Of a stretch of 64,000 nucleotides of DNA, positions 1 to 13,850 are shown piece by piece. The stretch is from an uncultured Bacteriovorax sp. (GTDB taxonomy: Bacteria > Bdellovibrionota > Bacteriovoracia > Bacteriovoracales > Bacteriovoracaceae). The notes below the pieces were generated by a model, which had not been told where the DNA came from, did no database searches, and worked only from the letters and a program-made list of their open reading frames with translations. A program made the position numbers and the translations under genes. The stretch covers positions 17,505-81,504 of the forward strand of contig CAZQJK010000009.1 in assembly GCA_964593545.1 (NCBI GenBank), in the 5' to 3' direction. Position 1 is the first letter of the stretch; every line of letters begins with the position of its first letter.

Positions 1-15
1 CTTGAAACAAAGCAA

Positions 16-210
16 TTAGCGTCTTATTGCCGAAGATTCAATTGTTTTAGATTCACTCTTGTTACTATCAGCAAGCATTTGATCAATTTCGGCCATCTCT
101 TTATAGAATCCCTTGTGCAGACATTGTGTGTCGTTACCTTGATCAGTGTTTGACTCGCTTATTGCAAATACATTAACTGTAAGTAAAAGTGCTAGTAATA
201 ATTTTTTCAT
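16..210 (-). CDS. Small secreted peptide A (64 aa)
   Basis: Signal peptide MKKLLLALLLTVNVFA, polar mature part with one Cys, purine-rich SD, sigma54-type promoter 34 nt upstream. Confidence 0.75.
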   Translation of the reverse strand: MKKLLLALLLTVNVFAISESNTDQGNDTQCLHKGFYKEMAEIDQMLADSNKSESKTIESSAIRR

Positions 211-243
211 GCTAAACCCCCGTATTGTTATTATTATTTATAC

Positions 244-260
244 TGCATTGTTCGTGCCAA
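244..260 (-). promoter_or_regulatory. sigma54 (-24/-12) promoter for peptide A
   Basis: Minus strand TTGGCACGAACAATGCA: GG-N10-GC, close to consensus YTGGCACG-N4-TTGCW. Confidence 0.75.
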
Positions 261-317
261 CAGTTCATACAAGTATTCAACAACTTACAATCAACACAAT
301 GAACTTAAATTATACAG

Positions 318-334
318 TGTCTAAAGTTTAGACA
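318..334. promoter_or_regulatory. Perfect palindrome, candidate enhancer-binding-protein site
   Basis: TGTCTAAA-G-TTTAGACA (TGT-N11-ACA), about 60-75 nt upstream of the -24 element. Confidence 0.45.
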
Positions 335-411
335 GCTCTGTATTGTTTTCAATTTAATACGTTCGCTTCCTAGTTTAAGTTAAATTAGAAAAATATCTCA
401 TAGGAGTAGAA

Positions 412-1359
412 ATGAAAGTTGTTAAAATACTTATCGCCCTTATAGCTCTATCTTCATTCGCCCAAGCGAAAGGACAAACAATGTGGGCGTCGATTCCATT
501 TATAAGAGGTGCTGATCTCTGTGCTTACAAGCAAGCTTATTCACAAACCCGCTCAGAATATATGGACGAAATGGTCGGTTTAGCTTCTGATCTTATGCAA
601 GCTGGAGCAAAGGGTAAGGAGGCTTTACAGATGCTTCAAACCTTTGATGCCATGTATGACAAAAACTTACGTATTGCAACTCAGTATAAGTATCTCGATG
701 TAACTTTAGAGAATACATTGAAAGCTTATCTTGATGGTTATTATAGAAGTTTTCCAGTATCGGATAGAAAATTTAGTTTTCGTCACATGAACGATATTAG
801 AAGAATTATCAATAATGCTTCAAACGATAGAAGAACAGGATACTTACCACCGAACTCATCTTCACTCGTTGACTACATCGCCTACGGAACCTATTCTTTT
901 GCACCAAACTGTAAAGGAAATATTCAAGTAACTCTTACAATGGTAGACAAGAATGGAATGACGACATCTTACCAAGGTATTGGCGCCCCAAGTGTTGTGA
1001 TGTCACAAATTGCATCAAGAATTTTTGAAGACTTTCAAGGGACTAAGTTTCCTAATACTATCTACGTTAATGGCTACAATCTTAAACTTGTAGGAACACA
1101 TAATGGATCAGTAGGAAAAGCGACAAGTATGAGACAAGCTGAGAATGCCTGTAAGAATAAACAAGCACGACTACCTTCTGCGAACGAACTTGAGGCAATT
1201 GATGCTTATGGTGACTGGAATGGAGGTGTATCAATTGGTAAAAGCGTTTGGGCGATTAGTGGCGGTATGGTATATCACCCAGGACTTATGAATCCAAGTC
1301 CGGTAAGATCTCCACATTCAATAAATGAAAAAGTATATTCTTATTACTGCGTAAAATAA
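412..1359 (+). CDS. Secreted hypothetical protein, C-terminal DUF1566/C-type-lectin-like motif
   Basis: Signal peptide, SD AGGAG; C-terminal AENACKNKQARLPSANEL...W...YYC pattern. Confidence 0.75.
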   Translation: MKVVKILIALIALSSFAQAKGQTMWASIPFIRGADLCAYKQAYSQTRSEYMDEMVGLASDLMQAGAKGKEALQMLQTFDAMYDKNLRIATQYKYLDVTLENTLKAYLDGYYRSFPVSDRKFSFRHMNDIRRIINNASNDRRTGYLPPNSSSLVDYIAYGTYSFAPNCKGNIQVTLTMVDKNGMTTSYQGIGAPSVVMSQIASRIFEDFQGTKFPNTIYVNGYNLKLVGTHNGSVGKATSMRQAENACKNKQARLPSANELEAIDAYGDWNGGVSIGKSVWAISGGMVYHPGLMNPSPVRSPHSINEKVYSYYCVK

Positions 1360-1363
1360 TGAT

Positions 1364-1387
1364 GGCCCTTAGGGGCCTTTTATTTTT
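1364..1387 (+). terminator. Rho-independent terminator
   Basis: GGCCC-TTAG-GGGCC followed by TTTTATTTTT. Confidence 0.65.
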
Positions 1388-2208
1388 AACTCGATCATTT
1401 TTTTTAGCTCATCTGCTTCCTCAAATCTCCCATGTTTCTCGTAACCGGCCAAAAGAATATTTGATTTTTCTATTAAACTTTCTAATGCCCACTTCTTCTT
1501 TTCTCTAGGAATTTTGAAGTCATCAAGTAAGTCACATATGGATCGTATACGCCAGAAGTCCATTGCAAAAAATCTTGTTGATAGCTGATCATCATGTCCC
1601 CCATGTTTTTCAACTAATGGCTCATCAACGAGATAGACCTCATGATGAAGAGAAATTTTTAGCCAAAGATCGTAATCTTCACAAACGGGATAAGAAATAT
1701 TAAAACGCGAATATTTATCAAGTAATGAACGCCTCATCATCACTGTTGAAGGACCAATAAAGCAAGAGGCAAGACATTCTTTAAAAATGTCTCCACTATA
1801 CTTACCCTGATATTTTTTCTTATTAACAAACTTTCCGTTTCGTATCCATTTTTCATCGGTATAGATAATATCGATGAAATTATTATTTGTGACTTCTAGT
1901 ACCTGCTTCTCTAATTTCTTTGGTAACCATTGATCATCAGAATCAAGAAACGCTAGCCATTCACCACGACTTTGGTCAACTCCAAAATTTCGAGCAAAAC
2001 TAACGCCTTGATTTACAATTTTATAATAGCGAACTTTTTCATTTGATTTCACTAAATTGGCAACTTGCTGGTCAGTGTTATCAGTTGAACCATCATCAAC
2101 AACGATTATCTCATAATCAGTAAATGTTTGTGCTAATACTGATTCGATGGCCTTAAGTACGAAGACTGCTCGGTTATAGGTAGGAATAATAACACTAACT
2201 AATGCCAT
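1369..2208 (-). CDS. Glycosyltransferase family 2
   Basis: VSVIIPTYNR, VVDDGSTD, FLDSDD, EDYDLW motifs. Confidence 0.92.
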   Translation of the reverse strand: MALVSVIIPTYNRAVFVLKAIESVLAQTFTDYEIIVVDDGSTDNTDQQVANLVKSNEKVRYYKIVNQGVSFARNFGVDQSRGEWLAFLDSDDQWLPKKLEKQVLEVTNNNFIDIIYTDEKWIRNGKFVNKKKYQGKYSGDIFKECLASCFIGPSTVMMRRSLLDKYSRFNISYPVCEDYDLWLKISLHHEVYLVDEPLVEKHGGHDDQLSTRFFAMDFWRIRSICDLLDDFKIPREKKKWALESLIEKSNILLAGYEKHGRFEEADELKKMIELKIKGP

Positions 2209-3576
2209 TTATAGATACTTCATGATGTTGCGAATCAGACTGAGTTTTCCCTCATATGGAGGATATCTCAAAGAGTTTTCAAATAAAAAGCTTCTCTTCA
2301 TTACTGATTTCTTATGGCTAAACAAATCAAACGAGTATTCACCGTGATAAGCACCCATACCACTTTCACCAACTCCACCAAATGGTAGTTTCTCATTCGA
2401 GAGGTGTATTAAAGTATCATTGATAACCATTCCACCGGAAGAAATATCACTAACAAAATCATCCTTACATGAATCAGTATCAAAAAAACCATAACTCGCG
2501 AGTGGCTTATCATGGTTCAAAACATAATTTTTTGCAGCTTCATAGTTATCTACAACCAAAACAGGTAAAATAGGGCCAAATATTTCTTCTTTCATTACAA
2601 GGGATTCACGGTTCCCCTCGACAACTGTTGGTTCGATAAAAAGTGTACTTCTATCTGAATCTCCCCCGATCAAGATTGAACTTTCTTCAATGTATTTACT
2701 AAGACGATCAAAGTGTCTTTCATTAATTATTCTTCCATAATTTGGACTTTGAACAACATCTGTAGTGTAAAAATAGTTTATCCACTTCTTCATTTCAGCA
2801 ATAAAAAGATCACGTGATTTTTCTTCAATAAGAATATAATCTGGGGCTACACAAGTTTGACCAGCGTTAAAGAACTTTCCCCACACAATCCTTTTAGCGG
2901 CAAGATTTAATTTATCTGTAAAAACAAGACATGGGCTCTTTCCACCAAGTTCAAGTGTTAATGGAGTCAAAAACTTAGATGCCTTCTCCATAATGATTCG
3001 GCCAACAACACCATTTCCAGTGTAGAAAATATAGTCAAACTTTAAATTAAGCAGTTCTGTCGTTTCTGGAATCCCACCTTCGATACATTTAACTTCACCA
3101 CCAATCGCAAATGCCTTCTCTATTAAGCGGGAAATTACCTTAGATGTATTTGGAGCAAGCTCAGAAGGCTTAATAATAGCTGTATTTCCAGCTGCTAACG
3201 CTCCAATGAGAGGAGCAAGAACAAGTTGAAATGGATAGTTCCATGGACCTATAATCAGCACAGTCCCATAAGGCTCAGGCACGATATAGCTTTTAACAGG
3301 AAAGAACGTAAGAGAGGACTTGACCTTCTTTGGCTTTCTCCACTTATTTATATTTTTAAGGGCAACATCAATTTCATGAATTACAAAGTCAATTTCTGAT
3401 AAATAAGATTCAAATTCACACTTTCCGAGATCGAGCTTTAAAGCATTGGCAATATCTTCGCTTAATTCTTGTATTGTTTGTTTTAGTTTTAATAGAACTA
3501 TTTTTCTCTTACTAGTGTCTTTCAAATTATTTCTCGCCGAAATAACTTGTTGGTAATACTGAGTAATGTCTTGCAT
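2209..3576 (-). CDS. NAD(P)-dependent aldehyde dehydrogenase (ALDH3-like)
   Basis: PWNYP, LELGGKSP, GQTCVAPDY, EEIFGP, PFGGVGESGMG motifs. Confidence 0.95.
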   Translation of the reverse strand: MQDITQYYQQVISARNNLKDTSKRKIVLLKLKQTIQELSEDIANALKLDLGKCEFESYLSEIDFVIHEIDVALKNINKWRKPKKVKSSLTFFPVKSYIVPEPYGTVLIIGPWNYPFQLVLAPLIGALAAGNTAIIKPSELAPNTSKVISRLIEKAFAIGGEVKCIEGGIPETTELLNLKFDYIFYTGNGVVGRIIMEKASKFLTPLTLELGGKSPCLVFTDKLNLAAKRIVWGKFFNAGQTCVAPDYILIEEKSRDLFIAEMKKWINYFYTTDVVQSPNYGRIINERHFDRLSKYIEESSILIGGDSDRSTLFIEPTVVEGNRESLVMKEEIFGPILPVLVVDNYEAAKNYVLNHDKPLASYGFFDTDSCKDDFVSDISSGGMVINDTLIHLSNEKLPFGGVGESGMGAYHGEYSFDLFSHKKSVMKRSFLFENSLRYPPYEGKLSLIRNIMKYL

Positions 3577-3628
3577 GGGATCCCCTAATTCTTTTCTTAA
3601 AGTATAGGGTAATTACAAATTTGAGGAA

Positions 3629-3654
3629 ATAAAAAAGGGCCACAGAAGTGGCCC
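3629..3654 (-). terminator. Rho-independent terminator of peptide B
   Basis: GGGCCAC-N4-GTGGCCC stem followed by a T-run on the minus strand. Confidence 0.85.
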
Positions 3655-3663
3655 AGTATATTC

Positions 3664-3852
3664 TTACTTTGATCTTCCATTTTCGCTTTTGGCAGGCTCA
3701 GCTGTTCTTACATCTCCAGAAGACGGAAGCTGTTCCTGATATGCACTATCATGAACTGTTTTTTCGCAACTAACATCAGATTTCTCATCTAATGCAAATA
3801 CATTTGATACACTACATACTACTAAGATTGTTAAAATTAAAGCTTTCATCAT
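3664..3852 (-). CDS. Small secreted peptide B (62 aa)
   Basis: Signal peptide ending SNVFA, polar mature part with one Cys, SD AGGGGG, own terminator and sigma54-type promoter. Confidence 0.8.
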   Translation of the reverse strand: MMKALILTILVVCSVSNVFALDEKSDVSCEKTVHDSAYQEQLPSSGDVRTAEPAKSENGRSK

Positions 3853-3892
3853 ATCCCCCTGATATTAATGTTAGGTTGTTTGTTATTTATAT

Positions 3893-3909
3893 TGCACAGA
3901 CCATGCCAA
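3893..3909 (-). promoter_or_regulatory. sigma54 (-24/-12) promoter for peptide B
   Basis: Minus strand TTGGCATGGTCTGTGCA: GG-N10-GC. Confidence 0.65.
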
Positions 3910-4026
3910 ATGATTTCACTTCTAGAGAAAGTGATTTTAGATACTTACCATCAAGAAGAGAGAGTAATTCTGTATATTTTTTAGTCACTGAATATTATTT
4001 TTACAGATTTAGCTAGATTAATTGAC

Positions 4027-4055
4027 AAAAAAAAAAGCCCGATATTATCGGGCTT
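4027..4055 (-). terminator. Rho-independent terminator of peptide C / RHS transcript
   Basis: AAGCCCGAT-N3-ATCGGGCTT followed by a long T-run on the minus strand. Confidence 0.88.
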
Positions 4056-4083
4056 AATTATTTAAAATAAATTTTAACAAAAG

Positions 4084-4281
4084 TTATTTCTTTGTTGAGG
4101 TACTTGTTCCAGCACTTTCTGTGGTCGTATCTGTCGCTGTAGTTGACTTACAAGTACCATCCTTACAACCTGAGATATTTGTACAGCTATCTGCACCACT
4201 TTGCTCGCCTACGCTTACGTCAGAAGCAAGAGTAATATTTAATGAGCTTAATATCGTTAGTAGCAATAGTATTTTCTTCAT
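4084..4281 (-). CDS. Small secreted peptide C (65 aa), positional analogue of Bd0108 (hit)
   Basis: Signal peptide, three Cys, Thr/Ser-rich tail, SD AGGAG; directly downstream of the RHS gene. Confidence 0.8.
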   Translation of the reverse strand: MKKILLLLTILSSLNITLASDVSVGEQSGADSCTNISGCKDGTCKSTTATDTTTESAGTSTSTKK

Positions 4282-4384
4282 TTCGATCTCCTATAGAGGG
4301 TATTTTATCATATAATGGTTAATCACCAACAATCACTTAGTATTTCAGCTTTTCAGGGTCTTAACCTGCCACTGAAAGTTGTCA

Positions 4385-6013
4385 CTACATATTTAAGTTA
4401 ACACCTGCAGGCTTAACAATCGATAATAATGACTGAAATGCTTGCGTTACCTGTAATGCCATTTTATGCCCTGCTTTCGATTCTACCTTTAGAATTTCAC
4501 CGTAGTTATCGTATTTAACATTAATTTTTCCGATGTTCTTCATTGAAATCTCAACAGGCTTTCCTTGAGCATTATAAATAAAGCTCAATTCACGCTTTTT
4601 GTTTGTTGATTTATCAAAGTCGTACATATTTGAAATTCGACCTTTTGAATCATAAGTTAAAAGTACTGACATATTTTTTGAATTCTCAGCTCTTTTCAAA
4701 TTACCTTTCTTATCATATTCAAATTTAGTCCAACCATTATTATTCGACACATTTGTAATCTTGTTAAACTCTGGGTGATACTTAAGTTCAACATAGTCTC
4801 CTCTTGAAGAATTTTTCTTAACAAGAAGCCCTTTGCTATTATATTCAAAATTTGTAACGAAGTTACCTCTTTTGATTTGCTTAGGTAATGAACAACACTC
4901 AGTATAGATAGTCTCAGTAGAAACATTATTTACGACAGTTAAAATTCTGTAAGTATAATGTGATCCATCTGGCTTTCTCTTAATTTCATACTCATAACGG
5001 TTTGTTACATCTTTCCCACCAGGGTTTTTCTTAGTAACTAGTGTCCAGTAATGAAACTCTGGGTTCTTTGGATTAGATTCATATTGATAAGCAACTGACT
5101 CACCATTTTTCTTTGTAACTTCTTCAACGAATTGTGTTTTCTTTGTATACTTAATCTTCATTGCTGAACCATCTTTGTAATTGATAGCAAGCATATTATG
5201 ATTGTGATCATAGTCGTACTTAAAAACATTTCCAGCAATATCTTTTGCTTCGATTAAATCGTCTTCTTTGTAAACGTACTCTGTTTTCTTTCCAGCACCA
5301 GATTCTACAGATTTAATTTTTCCATCTGGGTACCACTGAAAGAATATTTGTTTTGCCATTGAATCTTTAATAGATTTAAGGTTATTTCCTGAATAGTTTA
5401 GGTCTACAACGTATCCATTTTTATCTGTAATTTTAGTAAGCTTACCATCGTCGTTGAACAAATGCTCCTTACCATCATTATATTTTCTAGAGTATCCATC
5501 TTTAGTCTTAACAACTTTCTGAAGACCTCTTTCATTTGAATACAATTCTGAACCAACAGCTAATTTTGCAGAAACATCAAATCTCTTTGCATAGGCTTGT
5601 CTTAATTCTGCATCATTTGTCAGTTTTGTAATCAATGAACTTGCAACAGTTTCAGAAATCGAATTCTTTTTTCTCATTGCATCGATAATTTTCTTTGCAG
5701 CAGCTTCAGCATCAACAGACTTATTCGGTACAAATCTTGTTTTAGCTCCAGATCCATTTTCGTGTATCACAACAGAACCATCCGCCGATACATTCAAATA
5801 TGTCTCATAGTCAGATCCCCATCCAAAACCAAACCAACCTTTATCGGGTGATCTTGAGTTATAGGTTCTCTCAATAATGAGATCATGCCCACCACCTGGT
5901 ACAACAATATCCGTATAAGTGATATGGAAGTTACCATTCTTTAGATTAACGCCTGCAAATGCGCTTGATGCAAAAATACATAATAGTACAAAAAATTTAA
6001 AATTCTTCATCAC
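4385..6013 (-). CDS. Secreted YD-repeat/RHS protein with DUF6531-like N-terminus (Bd0109-like)
   Basis: Signal peptide, GVNLKNGNF...RTYNS...FGFGW, repeated YxYD/FEYD strands; no toxin tip. Confidence 0.9.
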   Translation of the reverse strand: MMKNFKFFVLLCIFASSAFAGVNLKNGNFHITYTDIVVPGGGHDLIIERTYNSRSPDKGWFGFGWGSDYETYLNVSADGSVVIHENGSGAKTRFVPNKSVDAEAAAKKIIDAMRKKNSISETVASSLITKLTNDAELRQAYAKRFDVSAKLAVGSELYSNERGLQKVVKTKDGYSRKYNDGKEHLFNDDGKLTKITDKNGYVVDLNYSGNNLKSIKDSMAKQIFFQWYPDGKIKSVESGAGKKTEYVYKEDDLIEAKDIAGNVFKYDYDHNHNMLAINYKDGSAMKIKYTKKTQFVEEVTKKNGESVAYQYESNPKNPEFHYWTLVTKKNPGGKDVTNRYEYEIKRKPDGSHYTYRILTVVNNVSTETIYTECCSLPKQIKRGNFVTNFEYNSKGLLVKKNSSRGDYVELKYHPEFNKITNVSNNNGWTKFEYDKKGNLKRAENSKNMSVLLTYDSKGRISNMYDFDKSTNKKRELSFIYNAQGKPVEISMKNIGKINVKYDNYGEILKVESKAGHKMALQVTQAFQSLLSIVKPAGVNLNM

Positions 6014-6053: not shown

Positions 6054-6080
6054 TTATCGGGAAAGTCTAAAAAAACCTTA
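6054..6080 (-). promoter_or_regulatory. sigma28 (FliA) promoter for the RHS gene
   Basis: TAAGGTTT-N11-CCCGATAA vs consensus TAAAGTTT-N11-GCCGATAA; overlaps the tadB stop. Confidence 0.75.
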
Positions 6081-6968
6081 ATCTTTAATTTGAACAATTT
6101 TAAAAATTACCATGGTTCCAACAATATCTAGTACTGTAGCCACGATAAAGAGTAGAATTCCCACAGGATGGCTAAACATTCTCTCTATTGCCTCAGGATC
6201 ACTGGAGCCATACATAATCAGTATTCCGTATGGCATTGCGGCCATAATCATACCCTGAAAACGTCCTTGTGCCGTTGCAGTGTCGATCTTCTGTTTTAAT
6301 CTTACACGTTCTCTAATAACATCAACAATTGTATCAAAAACCTCTGCAAGATTTCCCCCTGTTTCCCTTAATATATTAACGGAACTAACGAACATATCGT
6401 TATCCTGAGTAGGGACACGTTTCGCCAAATTCTCGAAACACTCTTCCAAAGGAACACCAATTCTATTTTGCTGTAACATGACATTAAACTCTTGTGATAA
6501 TGGTGCCGGCATTTCATCAACGACCATCCCAATTGACTGAGGGACACTCAATCCTGCACGTAACCCATTTGCTAAAAGAGTAAGGCCATCAACCATTTGT
6601 AATTCGTATTCCTTAACCCTCTTTGCAACGAAGTAATTAATAATTGGTCTCGGTAATTTAAACCCAATAAACGCAAAGATTATTCCGAGAACAAAGCCTA
6701 ATACCCATTTGCCAAGCAAACCGAAGATAATAATTATTATCGCTGCTGAACCAAATGATAATCCAAGTAGCCCATATGTTATTTTTTCTGGGGCAATCTC
6801 AATGAAGAGAAGATCTAATTTCTCTAGAATATATGTTCTTGTTCCCATCGTTTGTTTTTCGATGAAATCGAAAATACCGACCGAGTACTTATAGCAAAAT
6901 GCAAAAAGAACTACTCCAATAAGAATTACGAGACCGTTAAAACCAATAAGGCTAAGAAAAAATGACAT
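6078..6968 (-). CDS. tadB: TadB inner-membrane platform protein (T2SS F family)
   Basis: LANGLRAGLS, QNRIGVP, ETGGNLAEV motifs; follows the Tad ATPase. Confidence 0.88.
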   Translation of the reverse strand: MSFFLSLIGFNGLVILIGVVLFAFCYKYSVGIFDFIEKQTMGTRTYILEKLDLLFIEIAPEKITYGLLGLSFGSAAIIIIIFGLLGKWVLGFVLGIIFAFIGFKLPRPIINYFVAKRVKEYELQMVDGLTLLANGLRAGLSVPQSIGMVVDEMPAPLSQEFNVMLQQNRIGVPLEECFENLAKRVPTQDNDMFVSSVNILRETGGNLAEVFDTIVDVIRERVRLKQKIDTATAQGRFQGMIMAAMPYGILIMYGSSDPEAIERMFSHPVGILLFIVATVLDIVGTMVIFKIVQIKD

Positions 6969-6975
6969 AACTCAT

Positions 6976-9207
6976 TTACTCCTTTTTCACTGGTTTCCCA
7001 GTTGGTCTTTGAGGACGGTTCCCAGGTGGTTGTCCTGGTCTTGTACCGCTTGGTGCTGGCGGTCTCGCCGCTTGTGGTGGTTGAGAAGCCTGAGATGTAT
7101 TACTAAAAAGCCCTCGAGGAACATTGTATCCCTTCTTTTCTAAAGTCTCGATAAACTTAGGAATAAAACCAGTGGCCTGATATTCTCCAACAATTTTTCC
7201 AGATTTATCAATTCCTTTTTGGACATAGAGAAAGATATCTTGCAATGTAACAACCTCTCCTTGTATCCCACCTATTTCAGTGATGTGTGTAATACGTCTT
7301 GATCCATCATCTAATCTCTGTTGCTGTATAATTAAATGAACGGCTGAAGCAATCATTTCTCTAATCGCTTTTGGAGTAAGCCCTGCTCCCGCATATTGCA
7401 CAAGTGTTTCGATACGCCAGATACACTCTCGAGGATTATTTGAGTGAACCGTTGTTAAGGAGCCATCGTGTCCAGTTCCCATTGCTTGTAACATATCAAG
7501 TGTTTCACCACCACGACACTCACCCACAACAATTCTGTCCGGTCTCATTCTTAGACACTGCTTAACTAATAAGCGAATATCAATTTCACCATCTCCCTCA
7601 AGTGATGGTGGTCTTGTTTCAAGCCTAACCACGTGATCTTGAGGAAAATTAAGCTCAGCTGAATCTTCACAAGTAATGATACGTTCATTTGCCTGAATAA
7701 AACTTCCTAGAACATTAATCAAAGTTGTCTTACCTGAACCGGTACCACCAGAGACAATTATATTTCGGTGACCTTCAACAGCAATTCTTAAAAAATCTGC
7801 CATATTCTGTGTCATGGATCCAAACTTGACGAGGTCTTTATAAGTAAGGCGCTCCTCAGGAAATTTTCTAATTGTGATACAACATCCATCGATAGCAGAT
7901 GGAGGAATAATGGCATGAACTCTTGATCCATCATGGAGTCTAGCATCTACGTATGGTGTTTTTTCATCAATTCGTCTTCCAATCGGCGCAACGATTCTTT
8001 CAATAACATTGAGAACCTGACGATCATTTGTAAATATAACTTCAGACTTTCTAATTTTCCCACTTTTCTCAAAATATATTTTATCAGGTCCAACAACCAT
8101 AATTTCAGATACCGTTTTATCTGATAAAAGATCTTCCAAAGGACCAAGTCCTAATGCCTCATCGATAATTTCTTTAACGATCGCATTCATATCTTCTCGT
8201 GAATTTAATATGCCTTTCGTATCCTCTTTTCCGAGCAAATCAACAACAAGCTTCTTTGTTTTTTCTTTTAGAATAATTTTGGCTTTCGGATCATTTTTAT
8301 CATCATCACCGAGATCCATCTCCTCAACCAAACTCTTATGTATCCTAATTTTTAGATCTCGCCATGCATTTGCTGTTCCCTTAGAAGCTGTCGCTCCCGA
8401 GGCATCAGAACCTGTCTTATTAGTTGTTACACCACTTGGTCTATTTAGTGTTGAAAGTTGCTTTAAGATATTAGATTGAATAATCTTTCTTGCTACTTCA
8501 GTTATTCCTTTCGAGAAGTTACTATTTTTAAGTGCGACGAGAGCAGGCTTTCTTTGATTCAGGGCCATTGCACAAGTTTGATCATCTTTTACGATTGTTC
8601 CAAGTAATGGTCGTCCGAGAGTTTTAGAAACAACATCGGGTGTAACAGGATGACCTTTTTGAGCCTGATTCATTACAAAATGTATCATCTCTTTCGGGAA
8701 CATCATTGTTACTAAATCAGAAATCATTCTCTTCGTTTGATTAAGTACTAACAAGTCTGGCGTTACAACGATTAAAATCATTGTCGAGTACTCTAAAGCT
8801 TTTAGAGTTAAAGGACTTAATTCACTTCCCCCGTCAATCACTGTAATTGGAAAAAGTGATGAAAATGCTTTTAAATATTTTCCAGCTGCATCTGGATCTA
8901 ATCCATCAGTCACTGCTGGGTCATTGGGCAAGCCGATATAATTCACACCTGCTGGATGTGGATTTAAAAAAGGTGCTATAGTGCGAGGATCGATATTTCC
9001 GCTAAAAGCAAAAAGATCTTTCATATTTTTTTTCGACTTAATCCCTGTAATTAAATTTTGATCGCCACTTGCTCTTTGATCAAAATCTAAAAGAAGAGTT
9101 TTTCCTCGAGATTCAGCAACAAGTGAAAAAGCAAGGTTTGCAGCGACTTGAGATTTCCCAACCCCGCCTTTAGCACCGATAACTGTTATTATGTGACCTT
9201 CGGCCAT
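6976..9207 (-). CDS. tadA: TadZ/CpaE(MinD-like)-TadA/CpaF fusion ATPase
   Basis: N-terminal GAKGGVGKS deviant Walker A; C-terminal GGTGSGKTT, LRMRPDRIVVGECRG, TGHDGS. Confidence 0.9.
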   Translation of the reverse strand: MAEGHIITVIGAKGGVGKSQVAANLAFSLVAESRGKTLLLDFDQRASGDQNLITGIKSKKNMKDLFAFSGNIDPRTIAPFLNPHPAGVNYIGLPNDPAVTDGLDPDAAGKYLKAFSSLFPITVIDGGSELSPLTLKALEYSTMILIVVTPDLLVLNQTKRMISDLVTMMFPKEMIHFVMNQAQKGHPVTPDVVSKTLGRPLLGTIVKDDQTCAMALNQRKPALVALKNSNFSKGITEVARKIIQSNILKQLSTLNRPSGVTTNKTGSDASGATASKGTANAWRDLKIRIHKSLVEEMDLGDDDKNDPKAKIILKEKTKKLVVDLLGKEDTKGILNSREDMNAIVKEIIDEALGLGPLEDLLSDKTVSEIMVVGPDKIYFEKSGKIRKSEVIFTNDRQVLNVIERIVAPIGRRIDEKTPYVDARLHDGSRVHAIIPPSAIDGCCITIRKFPEERLTYKDLVKFGSMTQNMADFLRIAVEGHRNIIVSGGTGSGKTTLINVLGSFIQANERIITCEDSAELNFPQDHVVRLETRPPSLEGDGEIDIRLLVKQCLRMRPDRIVVGECRGGETLDMLQAMGTGHDGSLTTVHSNNPRECIWRIETLVQYAGAGLTPKAIREMIASAVHLIIQQQRLDDGSRRITHITEIGGIQGEVVTLQDIFLYVQKGIDKSGKIVGEYQATGFIPKFIETLEKKGYNVPRGLFSNTSQASQPPQAARPPAPSGTRPGQPPGNRPQRPTGKPVKKE

Positions 9208-10694
9208 TAAGGACCCCTCTTCCTAAACTTTCGTTTAATTTCTTCTGAACCAGCTGATGCACTATCAATAATCTCTGGTGTAATAAATACAACAAATTGC
9301 TCCTTACTACGGGACAATGACTTTGATTTTATGAAGGAGAACAACGGAAAACCAGAACCTGCTTCAACAGTATCTGCTCCACCAGGAGGATCTTTATCAT
9401 ATTGAGTAGAAGATTTAGTAGATGAAACTCCACCAACGACAGCAGACTCTCTTGTTTTTACAATTATAATCGTATTGATTGTATTCTCTAAAACATCTGT
9501 TCCGGAACCAAAACTAACTCCGAGAGAAATTTCGATATTTACTTTTTCTTCAGGCATGATTGTACCCTTAAGCTTTAAATCAAAACCTGCATCAATTGAT
9601 GTCGGTTGTTGAAACTCTCCAGTACCTAATGTTGTATTCTTCTTTGTCTTTCTTGTTATCGTCCCATTCTCGTTATCTTTAGCAATAATCATTCCGGACT
9701 GAACAATTCTTGCATACCCTGCAGCTTTTGCAGAATTTAACTTTGGAAATAGTTGTGAAATTGTCCCGGACAATGTTCCATCAGAGCTTGTTGATACGCC
9801 CCCCGAAGATGTTCGCCCAAATGAAATGCTTCCACCTTCTCCACCAAGAGTTGGATTCCATTTAAAACCAAATACTTTGTTATAGTCTTTTGTTAACTCA
9901 ACGAACTGTGCCGTAAACTTAATCATTTTAACAGGTTTTGGCGGTGGTTCAGTTTCATTGACGACAATAAAATTTTTAATAATTTCTTGCTCTAGCTTTT
10001 GGACCGAGTCAGTCCTTCTTGCTAAACTCTCAATTCTGTCTGGCAGATAAGTAATTCCAATTTTTGTCGCGAGTTCTTTTTCTTTTTCAGAACCAACGAT
10101 CCCTTCAAGGATATATGAATTATTAAAAAAGCGGACAGTTACATCTTTAAGATTATTTCTTCTCATCCCTTCTTGCATCTCTTTTGCAATTATTTGATAT
10201 GTCTGAGGAGAGACTTCGAGAAGATTTAAAACATCTTTATAGTCATCGAGAAAGAGAACAACTTTACCAATATCACTTGGGACAACAAGACGTCCTCCAA
10301 CAAAAACCTTGCCGCCTTTTATTCCGACCTCAACGCCCTCAATATCACTAAAGAAGTCTTTTAATTCATTAATAACCTTTGTCTTTTCCGTGGCAGTTAC
10401 TGTTACAAAGTATCGTATTGCGATATCTTTTGTTGCATCATTTCGCACTGATATTGATGAGACACCTGGCTTTAAGCCCTTTATTGTAATCTCTCTTTTT
10501 TGAGGAACAAAAGTCATGTCGACAACTGTATTATCTGCGATCTCTTTAATCGTTGTCGGTACAAAATCAAGTCGAATAACTTTATCTATCCCCATAAATA
10601 TTTCAATTCGCTCTTCCCTTGGGTTAACTTGCGCTATCCCATTCAGGCAAAAAAGAAACAAAAGAAATATTTTTACTGTATTTTTATTAATCAT
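9207..10694 (-). CDS. rcpA: Tad secretin RcpA/CpaC
   Basis: Signal peptide, BON-like segment, AQFVEL and VFITPEII secretin motifs, Tad context. Confidence 0.82.
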   Translation of the reverse strand: MINKNTVKIFLLFLFCLNGIAQVNPREERIEIFMGIDKVIRLDFVPTTIKEIADNTVVDMTFVPQKREITIKGLKPGVSSISVRNDATKDIAIRYFVTVTATEKTKVINELKDFFSDIEGVEVGIKGGKVFVGGRLVVPSDIGKVVLFLDDYKDVLNLLEVSPQTYQIIAKEMQEGMRRNNLKDVTVRFFNNSYILEGIVGSEKEKELATKIGITYLPDRIESLARRTDSVQKLEQEIIKNFIVVNETEPPPKPVKMIKFTAQFVELTKDYNKVFGFKWNPTLGGEGGSISFGRTSSGGVSTSSDGTLSGTISQLFPKLNSAKAAGYARIVQSGMIIAKDNENGTITRKTKKNTTLGTGEFQQPTSIDAGFDLKLKGTIMPEEKVNIEISLGVSFGSGTDVLENTINTIIIVKTRESAVVGGVSSTKSSTQYDKDPPGGADTVEAGSGFPLFSFIKSKSLSRSKEQFVVFITPEIIDSASAGSEEIKRKFRKRGP

Positions 10695-11497
10695 CTTTTC
10701 TCGTATTTATCTTGAAAGAATTTCTTAGCTTCAACCTGGTCTTTCTCACCTAGGATGTCATAAAGCCTTGTTCCTTCAATTCGAACTTTTTCTTTATCAT
10801 TAATATTTCTTAAAATTAGATAAGGAGTACTTTCACCATACTGATAAAGCCAAATTAATTTTTGTACTTCAAAAGGATCAAGCTCTAATGTTACAGAGTT
10901 GTAATTACTGTATGTATTTAACTTCATCTGTTTAATTACTTTGGGAGTTTGTACACCGATAACTGGTAAATTATTTGAGATATTTCTTCCTGTAGACAAT
11001 ACTCTTACGTCTTGTAAAATCGTCATAATCTTTTGTCGATCTCTTCGGCCGGAGTAATCGATAGCAGCAAGAACATCTACGCGATCACCTGGTTTGATGA
11101 GTTTTGATACTGATGTTTGGTCAGAAACAGTTATCGAAACCGCTCTCTTATTTACAGAAACTTCTCTTGATAAACCAGTGCTCTCTCCAGGATAAGTTAT
11201 CCTTGGCTTTGTAATTTGTTCATCTTTTAAAATAGGAACAGTTGCGATTGTGTTTTCTACTTCTTTCATCGTCTTAAAACTTCCTGGCGAGACGAAGCGT
11301 TGAGGTACTGAAATTATTGTTACTTTTGAATCATCAATTAATTCATATTCTCCAATATCTTTTTTCGCAACAATAACAGACGTCATTGAGCCGTATCTTT
11401 TTACTAATTCAGTTTTTTGATCTTCTACGTATGTGTGAACCATAAACATCGCAAAGATTGCTATCACAAGTGCTAAGGTAAATGCTCTAGTATTCAT
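10691..11497 (-). CDS. cpaB: Flp pilus assembly protein CpaB/RcpC
   Basis: SAF domain VIVAKKDI; RAVSI, IKPGDRVDVL motifs. Confidence 0.9.
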   Translation of the reverse strand: MNTRAFTLALVIAIFAMFMVHTYVEDQKTELVKRYGSMTSVIVAKKDIGEYELIDDSKVTIISVPQRFVSPGSFKTMKEVENTIATVPILKDEQITKPRITYPGESTGLSREVSVNKRAVSITVSDQTSVSKLIKPGDRVDVLAAIDYSGRRDRQKIMTILQDVRVLSTGRNISNNLPVIGVQTPKVIKQMKLNTYSNYNSVTLELDPFEVQKLIWLYQYGESTPYLILRNINDKEKVRIEGTRLYDILGEKDQVEAKKFFQDKYEKR

Positions 11498-11587
11498 CTT
11501 CTAACCTTATTTAAGATATTATTATCATTAGCATTTTATCAAATTTTAGTGAACCTTAGCTGACTAGGTAAAAAGGGCCACTCACAA

Positions 11588-12109
11588 CTATTTAAAGGCA
11601 CAAATAGACTTAGATGAATATCCGACAGAGTTTCTTGGGTAATCGACTCGAAAAAAAGTATTATCGGTAGACATGCGACTATAGGTTTCACCACATATTC
11701 CATAGAGAGTGAAAATTTTGATACAAGAAGTTTGATTATCTGAAAATTTTTCCAAACAATCCTCAGAAGCACTACCTGCAAATGGAACATTAGGAAGTCT
11801 ATAGTAAGCTCCAAAAGACACTGAACCACTTCCCTCTTCTTTAAATCTCCATCCGATAATGTTCGCACTCACTAAATTTAAATTAGCGAGTTGTCTTAAG
11901 TCTCTTTCAATTAACCCATTGGAATTTCCATTTAAAAGATAATAAGTATATCCTCGCGTAAATTTTTGTTGATTTATTGAAGCGTTGATCGAGTTACCAA
12001 AATTCATAATCAATCCACCAAGATAGATTAAGATTGGAACAAAGAGGACAAGTTCGAACATCGCCTGTCCATCCTCATTTTTATAAATGTCAAAATATTT
12101 CTTTAGCAT
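11588..12109 (-). CDS. TadE-like pseudopilin
   Basis: GQAMFEL plus hydrophobic helix; start moved to MLKKYF. Confidence 0.75.
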   Translation of the reverse strand: MLKKYFDIYKNEDGQAMFELVLFVPILIYLGGLIMNFGNSINASINQQKFTRGYTYYLLNGNSNGLIERDLRQLANLNLVSANIIGWRFKEEGSGSVSFGAYYRLPNVPFAGSASEDCLEKFSDNQTSCIKIFTLYGICGETYSRMSTDNTFFRVDYPRNSVGYSSKSICAFK

Positions 12110-12110
12110 C

Positions 12111-12626
12111 TTAACATCCATTATCAAAAAGTGTTGTGTGATCACTACAGCTACCTACAGATGCCGAAATTGCATCACAAGTTCTTTTCGCACATTCTGT
12201 TCTTGTTGGCTCTTTCCCTAGAAAAGACTCACTTCTAAATTCCATTGGTATTTTTCCACCAACAGTTTTAGTAAATGATAACCTATCTGTATATGTTGCA
12301 TAGGCTCCAACAAAAGCTTTGATGACATTATCAGCGGGGCTATTGAACCTGATCTCTCCATCAAAATTTGGCATAAATTTTGTTATGTAATAAGATTCAA
12401 AAACTTGCTTCCCTATTCCCTCGGCGTAACTAAAAACCTGCGGAGCATTTGCATTATTATTATCAGTAACAAGATACGCTCTCGATGCCATAAACGTTGC
12501 ATACTGGACGAGGTATCCATTGGTATAATTTAGCGCCTGTTTCATAAAAAAGAAAATAAATGCAAATGCAATTGTTATACAACTTAAGAACTCAACTGTA
12601 GATTGACCTTTTTTATTATTGATCAT
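12111..12626 (-). CDS. TadE-like pseudopilin
   Basis: GQSTVEF plus hydrophobic helix; start moved to MINNKK. Confidence 0.75.
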   Translation of the reverse strand: MINNKKGQSTVEFLSCITIAFAFIFFFMKQALNYTNGYLVQYATFMASRAYLVTDNNNANAPQVFSYAEGIGKQVFESYYITKFMPNFDGEIRFNSPADNVIKAFVGAYATYTDRLSFTKTVGGKIPMEFRSESFLGKEPTRTECAKRTCDAISASVGSCSDHTTLFDNGC

Positions 12627-12945
12627 ATGTGGATGTTGGTCCAAAGAACCGTGAGTTACCATTTTCATTCCTATAACTTTGAAGCTCAATATCGTTATAA
12701 TCATTAGAATAATTATCTATATTTTCATTATGCCCGTATCGATACGAGAACTCAATAATTCTTGCCATCTGTTCATACATACCATTACCATTTCCGAGAA
12801 AGTCTTTCATCACGGATGATTTAATTATAAAGTTTGTTAGGCTTGCAAGAACAATAAGTAATAGTATGTACTCTACTGTCCCCTGTCCTTTTTCATTATC
12901 TAGAATAATATTTTCTCCTTGATAATCCACCCAAACCAAATCCAT
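12616..12945 (-). CDS. Flp/TadE-like minor pilin (start uncertain)
   Basis: GQGTVEYILL motif; the only ATG overlaps the peptidase gene by 46 nt. Confidence 0.65.
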   Translation of the reverse strand: MDLVWVDYQGENIILDNEKGQGTVEYILLLIVLASLTNFIIKSSVMKDFLGNGNGMYEQMARIIEFSYRYGHNENIDNYSNDYNDIELQSYRNENGNSRFFGPTSTYDQ

Positions 12946-13406
12946 GAAATAAATATAACTGGCGCAAATGCAAATTTTTTACCAAATATACTACGAACTA
13001 AATTTATGTCTTTATTTCTAAAAGCAATAACAATCAGATCAGCATTTTTTAATATATTCTTTGTAAACACAGATCCTCCCACAAGTGTTGTGGCGATCGC
13101 TAGAGAAAAGAAGGCCTCCTCATGAAACTGAGAGGGTATTAGAAGATAAAAGGATGCGAGATACTTTGAATCCCCTCCACCCATAATTTTCATGAGAAAG
13201 AGGATAAATCCTGCGGCAAAAAAACCTAGCGGCCAGATGAAAGTTTCGATTTGAAATGAATAATAGTCTGGAAATAGCATTGTAAAGAATAAGTAGAATC
13301 CAATATTAATCATTGGCCACTTATTTGATATCTTCTTTGTTTGAAAGTCATGGTAAGCAACAATGAGGATTTGTACCGCGAGGTAGGCATAGACAACAAA
13401 TGGCAT
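12900..13406 (-). CDS. cpaA: A24 prepilin peptidase TadV/CpaA
   Basis: YHDFQTKKISN, MGGGDSKY, FAFAPVI motifs, multi-TM. Confidence 0.85.
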   Translation of the reverse strand: MPFVVYAYLAVQILIVAYHDFQTKKISNKWPMINIGFYLFFTMLFPDYYSFQIETFIWPLGFFAAGFILFLMKIMGGGDSKYLASFYLLIPSQFHEEAFFSLAIATTLVGGSVFTKNILKNADLIVIAFRNKDINLVRSIFGKKFAFAPVIFISWIWFGWIIKEKILF

Positions 13407-13408
13407 AC

Positions 13409-13621
13409 CTACTCCATATTCTCATAAGCGTTATGCCAGCATCCTTGAGCGCATGCTCCAGTAGAAAGCTCCTGAGTTAGGTGGTAAGCAAAATTTTTGA
13501 AGAACCCTTCAGAGAAAACAGCAATACCTTTGGCAGCACTGATAGCTATCAAAGAGAATATTGCAAATACAAATATATATTCAAGCAAAGCCTGACCTTG
13601 AGCATGTTTTGACATACTCAT
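13409..13621 (-). CDS. Flp-like minor pilin
   Basis: GQALLEY plus hydrophobic helix, C-terminal CxxxC. Confidence 0.7.
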   Translation of the reverse strand: MSMSKHAQGQALLEYIFVFAIFSLIAISAAKGIAVFSEGFFKNFAYHLTQELSTGACAQGCWHNAYENME

Positions 13622-13667
13622 AGGTTACTAGAAGCTGTAACTTATATCTAGACAGTGAAAATTATTC

Positions 13668-13850
13668 TTAATCTGCGCTAAAGTCCAGCTTCATTGCTTC
13701 ACCAAATACTTTCTCAGTAAGAGCTTCAATTTGTGGTTCTGCAACCTTTTTAAACTTAAAAACGAGCATCGCCGCAACAGCAACAAGTAGGATATACTCT
13801 GTCGATGTCTGACCCTCTTCGTCTCTAAGAAATTCCATAAACTTCTTCAT
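13668..13850 (-). CDS. flp: Flp major pilin
   Basis: FLRDEEGQTSTEYILL, 60 aa, SD AGGAG. Confidence 0.9.
   Translation of the reverse strand: MKKFMEFLRDEEGQTSTEYILLVAVAAMLVFKFKKVAEPQIEALTEKVFGEAMKLDFSAD

Follow-up and report, generated by a model that had tools for sequence, protein, structure and literature searches.

Genes for two small exported peptides behind predicted sigma-54 promoters in the Halobacteriovorax counterpart of the Bdellovibrio hit locus

We describe here two genes for small Sec-exported peptides, denoted A and B, that are encoded in a 64,000-nt stretch of DNA (the window) from an uncultured Bacteriovorax sp. The window is part of contig CAZQJK010000009.1 of the assembly GCA_964593545.1 (C9:17505-81504), which amounts to 3.67 Mb with 35.8% GC. 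Each of the two genes is predicted to be a transcription unit of its own behind a sigma-54 (-24/-12) promoter. The elements that define these units are, in window positions:

16..210, minus strand: gene of peptide A, 64 aa, Sec signal peptide with predicted cleavage after NVFA
217..221, minus strand: Shine-Dalgarno sequence of A, GGGGG, read from the sequence; the G-rich block is conserved in the alignment of congeners
244..259, minus strand: predicted sigma-54 promoter of A, TGGCACGAACAATGCA, with the -24 GG at 258-257 and the -12 GC at 246-245; 23.2 bits with a position weight matrix (PWM)
318..334, no strand: perfect dyad TGTCTAAA-N-TTTAGACA (TGTCTAAACTTTAGACA), centre 67 nt upstream of the TGG of the A promoter; candidate enhancer (upstream activator sequence)
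3637..3654, minus strand: intrinsic terminator of B, GGGCCACTTCTGTGGCCC, a 7-bp GC-rich stem followed by the T-run TTTTTTATTT
3664..3852, minus strand: gene of peptide B, 62 aa (61 aa if the second ATG, at 3849, is used), Sec signal peptide ending in NVFA
3893..3908, minus strand: predicted sigma-54 promoter of B, TGGCATGGTCTGTGCA, with the -24 GG at 3907-3906 and the -12 GC at 3895-3894; PWM score 22.7 bits
3971..3987, no strand: degenerate dyad TGACTAAAAAATATACA, 12/16 positions, centre 71 nt upstream of the TGG of the B promoter

The promoter motifs were first read as TTGGCACGAACAATGCA (260-244, minus strand) for A and TTGGCATGGTCTGTGCA (3909-3893, minus strand) for B, and the original prediction placed them 34 and 41 nt before the ATG codons, each followed by an AT-rich leader and a G-rich Shine-Dalgarno sequence. 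This layout holds: both motifs lead through an AT-rich leader to a GGGGG Shine-Dalgarno sequence and a start codon (A at 210, B at 3852), and the distance from motif end to ATG is, on rereading, 33 nt for A and 40 nt for B. The GG and GC elements are exactly 10 nt apart at both promoters, which fit the TGGCAC-N5-TTGC geometry. Transcription from sigma-54 promoters starts about 12 nt after the GC and requires RpoN as well as ATP hydrolysis by an activator; the predicted starts are located at about 233 for A and 3882 for B.

The pattern TGGCAY-N6-TGCW has only two matches in the 64-kb window, whereas shuffled sequences contain 0.23 on average and reached two in 2 of 100 cases. Genome-wide, the N6 spacing yields 31 matches in non-coding DNA, which accounts for about 11% of the genome by a crude open reading frame (ORF) mask, and 9 in coding DNA, as against 0-2 non-coding matches for each of the control patterns (N4, N5, N7, N8, reversed and swapped). 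A PWM derived from these sites recovers 35 non-coding vs 2 coding sites at >=16 bits. The sites face start codons that are mostly found 24-50 nt downstream (range 24-115, mode 33-41 nt). Among the congeners, TGGCA[CT]-N6-TGC is located 28-44 nt before the ATG in all nine loci examined per gene, with a variable spacer and variable flanks, and in H. marinus SJ (G015) there are 31 motif matches vs 2 for the reversed control. The genome encodes RpoN (G000:C5:87999-88475, E = 1.8e-65) and eight bacterial enhancer-binding proteins (bEBPs) with the PF00158 domain (E <= 3e-20) and C-terminal helix-turn-helix regions. The rpoN gene is represented in 41 of the 41 related genomes searched, including G024, which has no strong bEBP matches; hence there is no natural sigma-54-less control genome in this set. 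As far as sequence can tell, both motifs behave as true sigma-54 promoters, in agreement with the original assignment: GG and TGC are retained at a constant distance, the enrichment across the genome hinges on that distance, and the genome encodes RpoN along with bEBPs.

Two features of these promoters speak against that assignment. The base that precedes TGC is A in the promoter of peptide A (ATGC) and G in that of peptide B (GTGC), not the T of the consensus TTGC, and, in a consensus scan of the A region, TTGGCA followed by 16 nt and AATAAT scores 10/12 as a sigma-70 promoter. TTGGCA would then be a sigma-70 -35 element with the AT-rich TATAAATAAT as the -10 element, and the likeness to sigma-54 promoters would be coincidental, or else the promoters would be dual; in the orthologues of A, TTGGCA is indeed followed, after 16 nt, by a hexamer resembling TATAGT or AATAGT. 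Yet the TGC that follows TGGCAY at exactly N6 would serve no purpose in a sigma-70 promoter and is invariant in all orthologues, as is the fourth-position G of TTGGCA, which mismatches TTGACA. Moreover, only the N6 spacing is enriched in non-coding DNA (31 vs 0-2), and the corresponding hexamers of B mostly end in C (AATAAC, AATAGC, TATTAC), without the key T of a -10 element. We regard the sigma-70 interpretation as highly improbable.

Peptide A consists of MKKLLLALLLTVNVFA up to the predicted cleavage site and continues with ISESNTDQGNDTQC... (junction ...TVNVFA/ISE), and peptide B consists of MMKALILTILVVCSVSNVFA followed by LDEKSDVSC... (junction ...VSNVFA/LDE), so that both signal peptides end in NVFA, as previously noted. 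Mature A has about 47 aa with one predicted helix, and mature B has about 41 aa, is acidic and is predicted to be disordered; each contains one invariant cysteine. The AlphaFold2 models, both of low confidence, so that helix and disorder are predictions only, give A a mean predicted local distance difference test score (pLDDT) of 60, with a helix over residues 34-61 (up to about 82 over residues 41-50), and give B no secondary structure past the signal peptide (block-mean pLDDT of 44-52 from residue 21). Pfam contains no family for A, for B, for the neighbouring peptide C described below or for a 49-aa peptide encoded elsewhere in this genome. The original prediction held that annotation pipelines often miss such peptides, which is not the case here: the exact sequences of A and B are present in NCBI-derived collections, the congener orthologues are annotated as 'hypothetical protein', and entries identical to the orthologues come from Halobacteriovorax sp. 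(GFR7, DA5, XZX-3) and Bacteriovorax sp. BAL6_X.

Syntenic orthologues of A and B were found in ten genomes of the same genus, and nine congener orthologues were compared for each gene. The orthologues of A have 64-70 aa, and the ORFs of A and B together stay within 60-70 aa across the ten genomes; the Shine-Dalgarno sequence, the start codon, the signal peptide and the single cysteine of the mature part are conserved in both sets. The ratios of nonsynonymous to synonymous substitution rates (dN/dS) are 0.06-0.32 for A and 0.13-0.40 for B. These comparisons indicate that A and B are real genes under purifying selection that encode small Sec-exported peptides. The alternative that the ORFs are untranslated and the sigma-54 promoters drive small non-coding RNAs derives some appeal from the shortness that the transcripts would have and from an ORF-less sigma-54 promoter with a terminator on contig C1 (see below), so that sigma-54-dependent small RNAs probably exist in this genome. 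It is hardly credible for A and B, given that dN/dS is well below 1, that the translation signals, the single cysteine and the length are retained in ten genomes, and that a search of window positions 1-4500 against Rfam gave no match reaching the threshold.

The two units differ at their 3' ends. The terminator that had been proposed for B is present at 3654-3637 and is strong. The stop codon of A (16-18) overlaps a convergent ORF whose 3' end is at window position 19, which leaves A no room for a terminator of its own; the A transcript would run antisense into the operon that contains a CheY-like gene and lon. The convergent ORF (111 aa, window 1-19; G000:C9:14265-17523) is translationally coupled to the gene of a CheY-like single-domain response regulator, after lon; lon also adjoins in other genera.

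The perfect dyad upstream of A and its degenerate counterpart upstream of B are located at about -92 to -104 relative to the predicted transcription starts; the upstream activator sequences bound by bEBPs are typically found 80-150 bp upstream. In the congeners, the dyad of A is kept at 11-16 of the 16 positions and is centred at -50 to -79 from the promoter TGG, and the B loci carry better copies than the window itself (up to 14/16), mostly at -67. In 17 of the 20 A and B loci of the congener set, the centre is between -67 and -79, with outliers at -50 and -60, and most congener dyads are centred at either -67 or -77/-79, positions that differ by one turn of the helix. The counterpart promoters of other genera, including one locus with 62% GC, also carry the dyad.

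The same element recurs at other sigma-54 promoters. Copies with at least 12/16 positions within 200 nt upstream are present at 15 of 39 sigma-54 promoters vs 105 of 2725 control upstream regions, an approximately 10-fold enrichment, and the good copies cluster at -67, -77/-79 and -88/-89, that is, at successive helical turns. The genome-wide distribution of dyad scores has a tail far heavier than the decay of the lower scores predicts. In H. marinus SJ, dyads with at most three mismatches (two with a single mismatch) are located at -67, -68, -69 and -79 from four strict promoters. Because the dyad is enriched upstream of sigma-54 promoters and is phased in the same way in SJ, co-regulation of A and B via this shared element is plausible, and the dyad resembles an enhancer for a single bEBP, with a putative binder. 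The sigma-54 promoters with a dyad include those of A, B, the exported 49-aa peptide (a single-locus gene on contig C11), two small exported proteins (88 and 96 aa), an S8 subtilase and two longer proteins (325 and 1509 aa); for the 49-aa peptide, both the promoter and the dyad at -78 are kept in the orthologue from the closest relative (G005).

Two other explanations of the dyad were considered and rejected. It contains TAAAGTTT and could be taken for part of a sigma-28 promoter, but there is no CCGATA-like -10 element at the right distance. It could also serve only the divergent gene at 412-1359, but congeners that lack this gene keep the dyad before A.

In this genome, there are about 35-40 sigma-54 promoters, mostly before genes with signal peptides, and about 10 of them carry the dyad. 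Among the 29 promoters with a score of at least 16 bits and an identifiable downstream gene, 20 (69%) precede signal-peptide-like N-termini (p = 5e-7), with a background of 24% of 2445 ORFs by the same crude rule. The identified targets include an S8 subtilase, a trypsin-like protein, zincin-type (HExxH) peptidases and a DksA-like protein, and the rest are mostly orphans. The genome-wide PWM scan that had been proposed to link sigma-54 to small signal-peptide genes recovers the link with export, but the targets are of all sizes. Likewise, of the predicted co-regulated mini-regulon, co-regulation gains support from the shared, phased dyad, whereas the notion of a self-contained pair does not survive. 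With so many promoters before signal-peptide genes, A and B are best described as predicted members of a sigma-54-controlled secretome rather than a closed mini-regulon.

Several observations on this wider set stand on their own. Promoters on contigs C34, C55, C1 and C13 precede the genes of the S8 subtilase, the trypsin-like protein and two exported proteins of the zincin type (HExxH) that are paralogues of each other; sigma-54 therefore appears to control secreted hydrolases in this predator. The top-scoring sigma-54 promoter of the genome, TTGGCATGGGTCTTGCTTATATAA (30.8 bits; G000:C1:668-1067, minus strand), is followed by about 85 nt without an ORF and then by the strong terminator GCCCGCTAATTTTTAGCGGG with a T-run, so that it may drive a sigma-54-dependent small RNA; another promoter with a high score and no ORF is found at G000:C8:63387-63786 (minus strand). 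At G000:C74:6960-7359, a sigma-54 promoter and a Shine-Dalgarno sequence lead to a signal-peptide ORF that stops after 12 codons, beyond which another frame runs on into a Cys-rich stretch (CSVGGSQCIFDNDCCSDNC...); the gene, which would encode a small Cys-rich exported protein, may carry a frameshift, or its sequence may contain an error.

The original prediction did not cover the neighbourhood of these genes, which contains a Tad pilus operon, a Bd0109-like RHS protein and further small exported proteins:

412-1359, plus strand: gene of a 315-aa exported protein, between the aldehyde dehydrogenase (ALDH) gene and A
1369-2208, minus strand: GT2 glycosyltransferase, between the ALDH gene and A
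2209..3576, minus strand: ALDH, between B and A in all genera examined
4035..4055, minus strand: terminator of peptide C, which separates C from the regulatory region of B
4084..4281, minus strand: peptide C, 65 aa, exported, three cysteines, no sigma-54 motif; it opens the series of small genes behind the RHS gene and matches Bd0108 and BMS0183 in position
4385..6013, minus strand: exported mini-RHS, counterpart of Bd0109, 542 aa, without a toxin domain; Pfam RHS_repeat and DUF6531
6078-13850, minus strand: Tad/Flp pilus operon, with the mini-RHS at its end; Pfam T2SSF, T2SSE, Secretin, RcpC and Flp1_like

The Tad operon encodes a Flp-like pilin, a prepilin peptidase, RcpC/CpaB, a secretin, TadZ-TadA and TadB. 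The GT2 gene and the gene of the 315-aa protein are insertions confined to this species and G005, its closest relative; in the other genomes, A directly follows the ALDH gene. The ancestral order, as reconstructed from these genomes, is RHS - C - B - ALDH - A.

In Bdellovibrio bacteriovorus, Bd0108 binds Bd0109 and tunes pilus extrusion and the switch between predatory and prey-independent life (PMC3818213, PMC4267844). As in the Bd0108/Bd0109 pair, a small Sec-exported, cysteine-containing protein is encoded here beside an exported RHS/YD protein without a toxin at the end of a Tad/Flp operon. Bd0108 is largely disordered, as is predicted for mature B, whereas mature A has one predicted helix. 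The differences are substantial: Bd0108 has 101 aa and carries a CxxC pair in a weakly helical core, a motif described for this protein (PMC4267844), whereas A and B have about 60 aa and one cysteine; A and B are the third and second small genes of the locus rather than the first, the position of Bd0108 being fully matched only by C; and A and B each have their own predicted sigma-54 promoter. No paper that we found places the hit locus under sigma-54 control, and the literature on sigma-54/RpoN in Bdellovibrio, Bacteriovorax and Halobacteriovorax that we searched contains no description of this arrangement.

Of 41 related genomes, 37 encode the mini-RHS. Downstream of it, two small signal-peptide ORFs, each preceded by a sigma-54 motif, are found in four genomes (G015, that is SJ, G021, G023 and G020), and one such ORF is found in each of three more (G018, G013 and G022); G030, from outside the family, is a weaker case, and in G032 and G040, the small protein after the RHS carries a CxxC motif and there is no sigma-54 motif at this position. 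The ALDH gene is located between the two sigma-54 peptide copies in SJ, G021, G023 and the congeners, and therefore B of the window corresponds to the copy adjacent to C, and A to the one beyond ALDH. Comparison of these genomes indicates that the genes of A and B, their promoters and their position are conserved throughout the genus Halobacteriovorax, that positional counterparts exist in at least seven other genera of the family, including that of H. marinus SJ, and that A and B are part of the locus that corresponds, in Halobacteriovorax, to the Bdellovibrio hit locus.

Part of this locus has been described in SJ, where BMS0183 and BMS0184 were interpreted as hit duplicated in tandem, their similarity lying largely within the first 18 residues, that is, in the signal peptide (Crossman et al. 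2013, PMC3526173). The order after the SJ RHS gene is a 67-aa peptide without a sigma-54 motif, a second 67-aa peptide with TGGCATGATTTGTGCT 32 nt upstream, ALDH, and a 62-aa peptide with TGGCACGATGAATGCA 40 nt upstream; by position, C of the window evidently corresponds to BMS0183 and B to BMS0184. Neither PMC3526173 nor PMC4267844 mentions sigma-54 or the third SJ copy after ALDH, the counterpart of A, and PMC3526173 does not mention the upstream dyad.

The relationship between A and B themselves is visible mainly through other genera. When the mature peptides were compared, using phmmer, with 446 small signal-peptide ORFs of the same genome, only self matches were obtained, and no paralogue was found. 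The two sigma-54 peptides of sister genera resemble each other significantly in their mature parts (7e-19, 1.7e-7, 9e-6 and 0.006, for a nominal 1-Mb database size); the value of 1.7e-7 is that of H. marinus SJ, where the two are still recognisable as paralogues. Thus, the paralogy of A and B in this genome is claimed from their position and from the clear paralogy of the sister-genus counterparts rather than from their own sequences, which appear to have diverged beyond detectable similarity. Every mature sigma-54 peptide, be it of the A type, of the B type or a counterpart from another genus, contains exactly one cysteine. The mature mini-RHS has two cysteines only, and these are adjacent (ECCS, residues 373-374). 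Of 15 RHS proteins compared, drawn from the family and from G030, where the small peptides have a single cysteine, 14 have such a Cys-Cys pair, which is the only cysteine content of most mature family RHS proteins examined; in G024, the two cysteines are not adjacent, and the pair is missing in G032 and G040, the relatives with a CxxC-type small peptide after the RHS.

Taken as a whole, we consider it likely that A and B are sigma-54-driven, co-activated exported peptides beside a hit-type locus that probably act on the RHS protein or the pilus. A considerable body of observations weighs against this interpretation. In an hhalign comparison of A with B, only the signal peptide and 3-4 further residues align. 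A lies 3.6 kb from B with metabolic genes in between. A profile comparison of the sigma-54-type with the C-type mature peptides gives a probability of 0.1%, that is, no similarity, so common ancestry with the peptide in the Bd0108 position is not demonstrated. The published assessments of the SJ peptides relative to Bd0108 range from 'limited similarity' (PMC3526173) to 'no significant homology' (Prehna et al., PMC4267844). The link to the RHS protein and the pilus is therefore built on conserved synteny and analogy only. As for the dyad, equally good copies are found 57-106 nt before the ATG codons of many signal-peptide genes that lack a sigma-54 motif (sites including C51:28628, C64:19479, C35:6311, C59:1717, C3:73381, C2:105870 and C15:58370), and its binder therefore need not be a bEBP; the dyad looks like the operator of a regulator whose action on exported-protein genes is not tied to a single sigma factor. 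Finally, none of the seven bEBP genes other than the one on contig C68 has a convincing dyad upstream, which leaves the activator without an assignment.

An alternative is that the sigma-54 promoters are real but the peptides are unrelated to RHS and Tad, being ordinary members of a large sigma-54-controlled secretome whose position is historical. The dyad would then be a general regulator site of exported-protein genes, not the enhancer of A and B, so that the two need not respond to one activator. The number of sigma-54 promoters before unrelated signal-peptide genes, including those of the S8, trypsin-like and zincin-like peptidases, the strong dyads at promoters without a sigma-54 motif, the lack of detectable homology among mature A, B and C in this genome, and the separation of A from the locus by ALDH, GT2 and another gene all fit such a scenario. 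It does not readily explain why the order RHS - C - peptide - ALDH - peptide, with sigma-54 promoters before both peptides, has been kept in at least eight genera despite divergence of the peptides almost beyond recognition, why the dyad stays in phase with the -24 element on the helix in both of the genomes that were analysed independently, or why every mature sigma-54 peptide has exactly one cysteine. We therefore judge it to be unlikely.

The bEBP encoded on C68 (G000:C68:10057-11625, minus strand), which has an unassigned N-terminal sensor domain, was considered as the activator. There are three dyad-like elements upstream of its gene, but the better ones are not kept in all congeners, and TGCCGAAAAGTTTGACA, the one that other genera retain, is more convincing as the -10 portion of TTAAG-N16-CCGAAA, a promoter of the sigma-28 type; the assignment was dropped. 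The protein itself is found full-length (50-97% identity) in 35 of the 40 related genomes searched, and its conservation spans most of the phylum sample. The TTAAG-N16-CCGAAA sequence matches the consensus of sigma-28 attack-phase promoters in Bdellovibrio (PMC3627812) and suggests a possible sigma-28 to sigma-54 cascade.

In their architecture, the A and B promoters resemble enhancer-dependent promoters of the NtrC/NifA type, with the canonical spacing of -24 GG and -12 GC and a 17-bp AT-rich inverted repeat about 100 bp upstream. The site of NifA is TGT-N10-ACA. In contrast to NtrC-, NifA- and FleQ-type systems, the sigma-54 targets here are mostly exported proteins and peptides rather than nitrogen or flagellar genes. 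The dyad, with its GTC-TAAA-N-TTTA-GAC core, is also comparable to the FleQ boxes (GTCaNTAAAtTGAC; PMC6120874, PMC8125075) in that it occurs at non-sigma-54 promoters as well; the FleQ box has 14 bp, whereas the dyad has 17 bp and conforms to TGT-N11-ACA. FleQ provides a precedent for a bEBP that also acts at sigma-70 promoters (PMC6120874, PMC8125075), and we treat the resemblance as an analogy and a lead only.

Returning to the interpretation of A and B as co-activated exported peptides of a hit-type locus, they are probably controlled by a so far undescribed signal-gated switch. The sigma-54 RNA polymerase would sit in a closed complex on both promoters until an enhancer-binding ATPase opens them; given that, as is established for sigma-54 in general, the closed complex stays inactive until an activator bound upstream hydrolyses ATP, expression would be off or on depending on a signal. 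The activator would bind the conserved dyad, one fixed helical phase upstream, and because this site is shared, one signal would switch on A and B together. The same signal would also turn on about eight further dyad-bearing sigma-54 promoters, including those of the 49-aa peptide and S8 protease genes. In the most speculative step, which is drawn by analogy with Bd0108, the exported A and B would influence the mini-RHS and the Tad pilus from within the periplasm or at the cell surface and would provide this system with signal-dependent partner peptides beside C, which has no sigma-54 motif.

A more specific version of this proposal, which we consider improbable, is that A and B are activator-gated, exchangeable partners of the mini-RHS: a bEBP at the TGT-N11-ACA dyad would induce them, and they would displace or join C and thereby change the activity of the Tad pilus and the life-cycle state. 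The signal, in that case, would be prey contact or the bdelloplast stage, and a mixed disulfide of the single-cysteine peptides with Cys373-Cys374 of the RHS protein might form. Such a disulfide partnership is conceivable because there is one cysteine per sigma-54 peptide and the Cys-Cys pair of the RHS is conserved, and is absent where the peptides are of the CxxC type. If this were true, the hit-type switch would be a set of peptide ligands partitioned by sigma factors.

The hit locus, that is, Bd0108/Bd0109 and the Tad pilus, is the best genetic handle on how Bdellovibrio-like predators choose among attack, invasion, growth and prey-independent life. What is new here is a regulatory variant of this locus, which extends to the published SJ duplicates and includes a candidate enhancer site, and of which we found no description in the literature searched. 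In the marine family, the small exported proteins of the hit locus appear to fall into at least two regulatory classes, one without a sigma-54 promoter and the other, with one or two peptides, behind sigma-54 promoters that share a conserved regulator site. This arrangement yields a reporter-ready promoter, a DNA site for fishing out the activator and the signal, and about 10 defined, putatively co-regulated targets. In Bdellovibrio, sigma-28 is a global attack-phase regulator with flagellar genes among its many targets (PMC3627812). The role of sigma-54 in these predators, which seems mainly to control exported proteins, including proteases, and for which we came across no published description, appears to be comparable to that of sigma-28 in Bdellovibrio.

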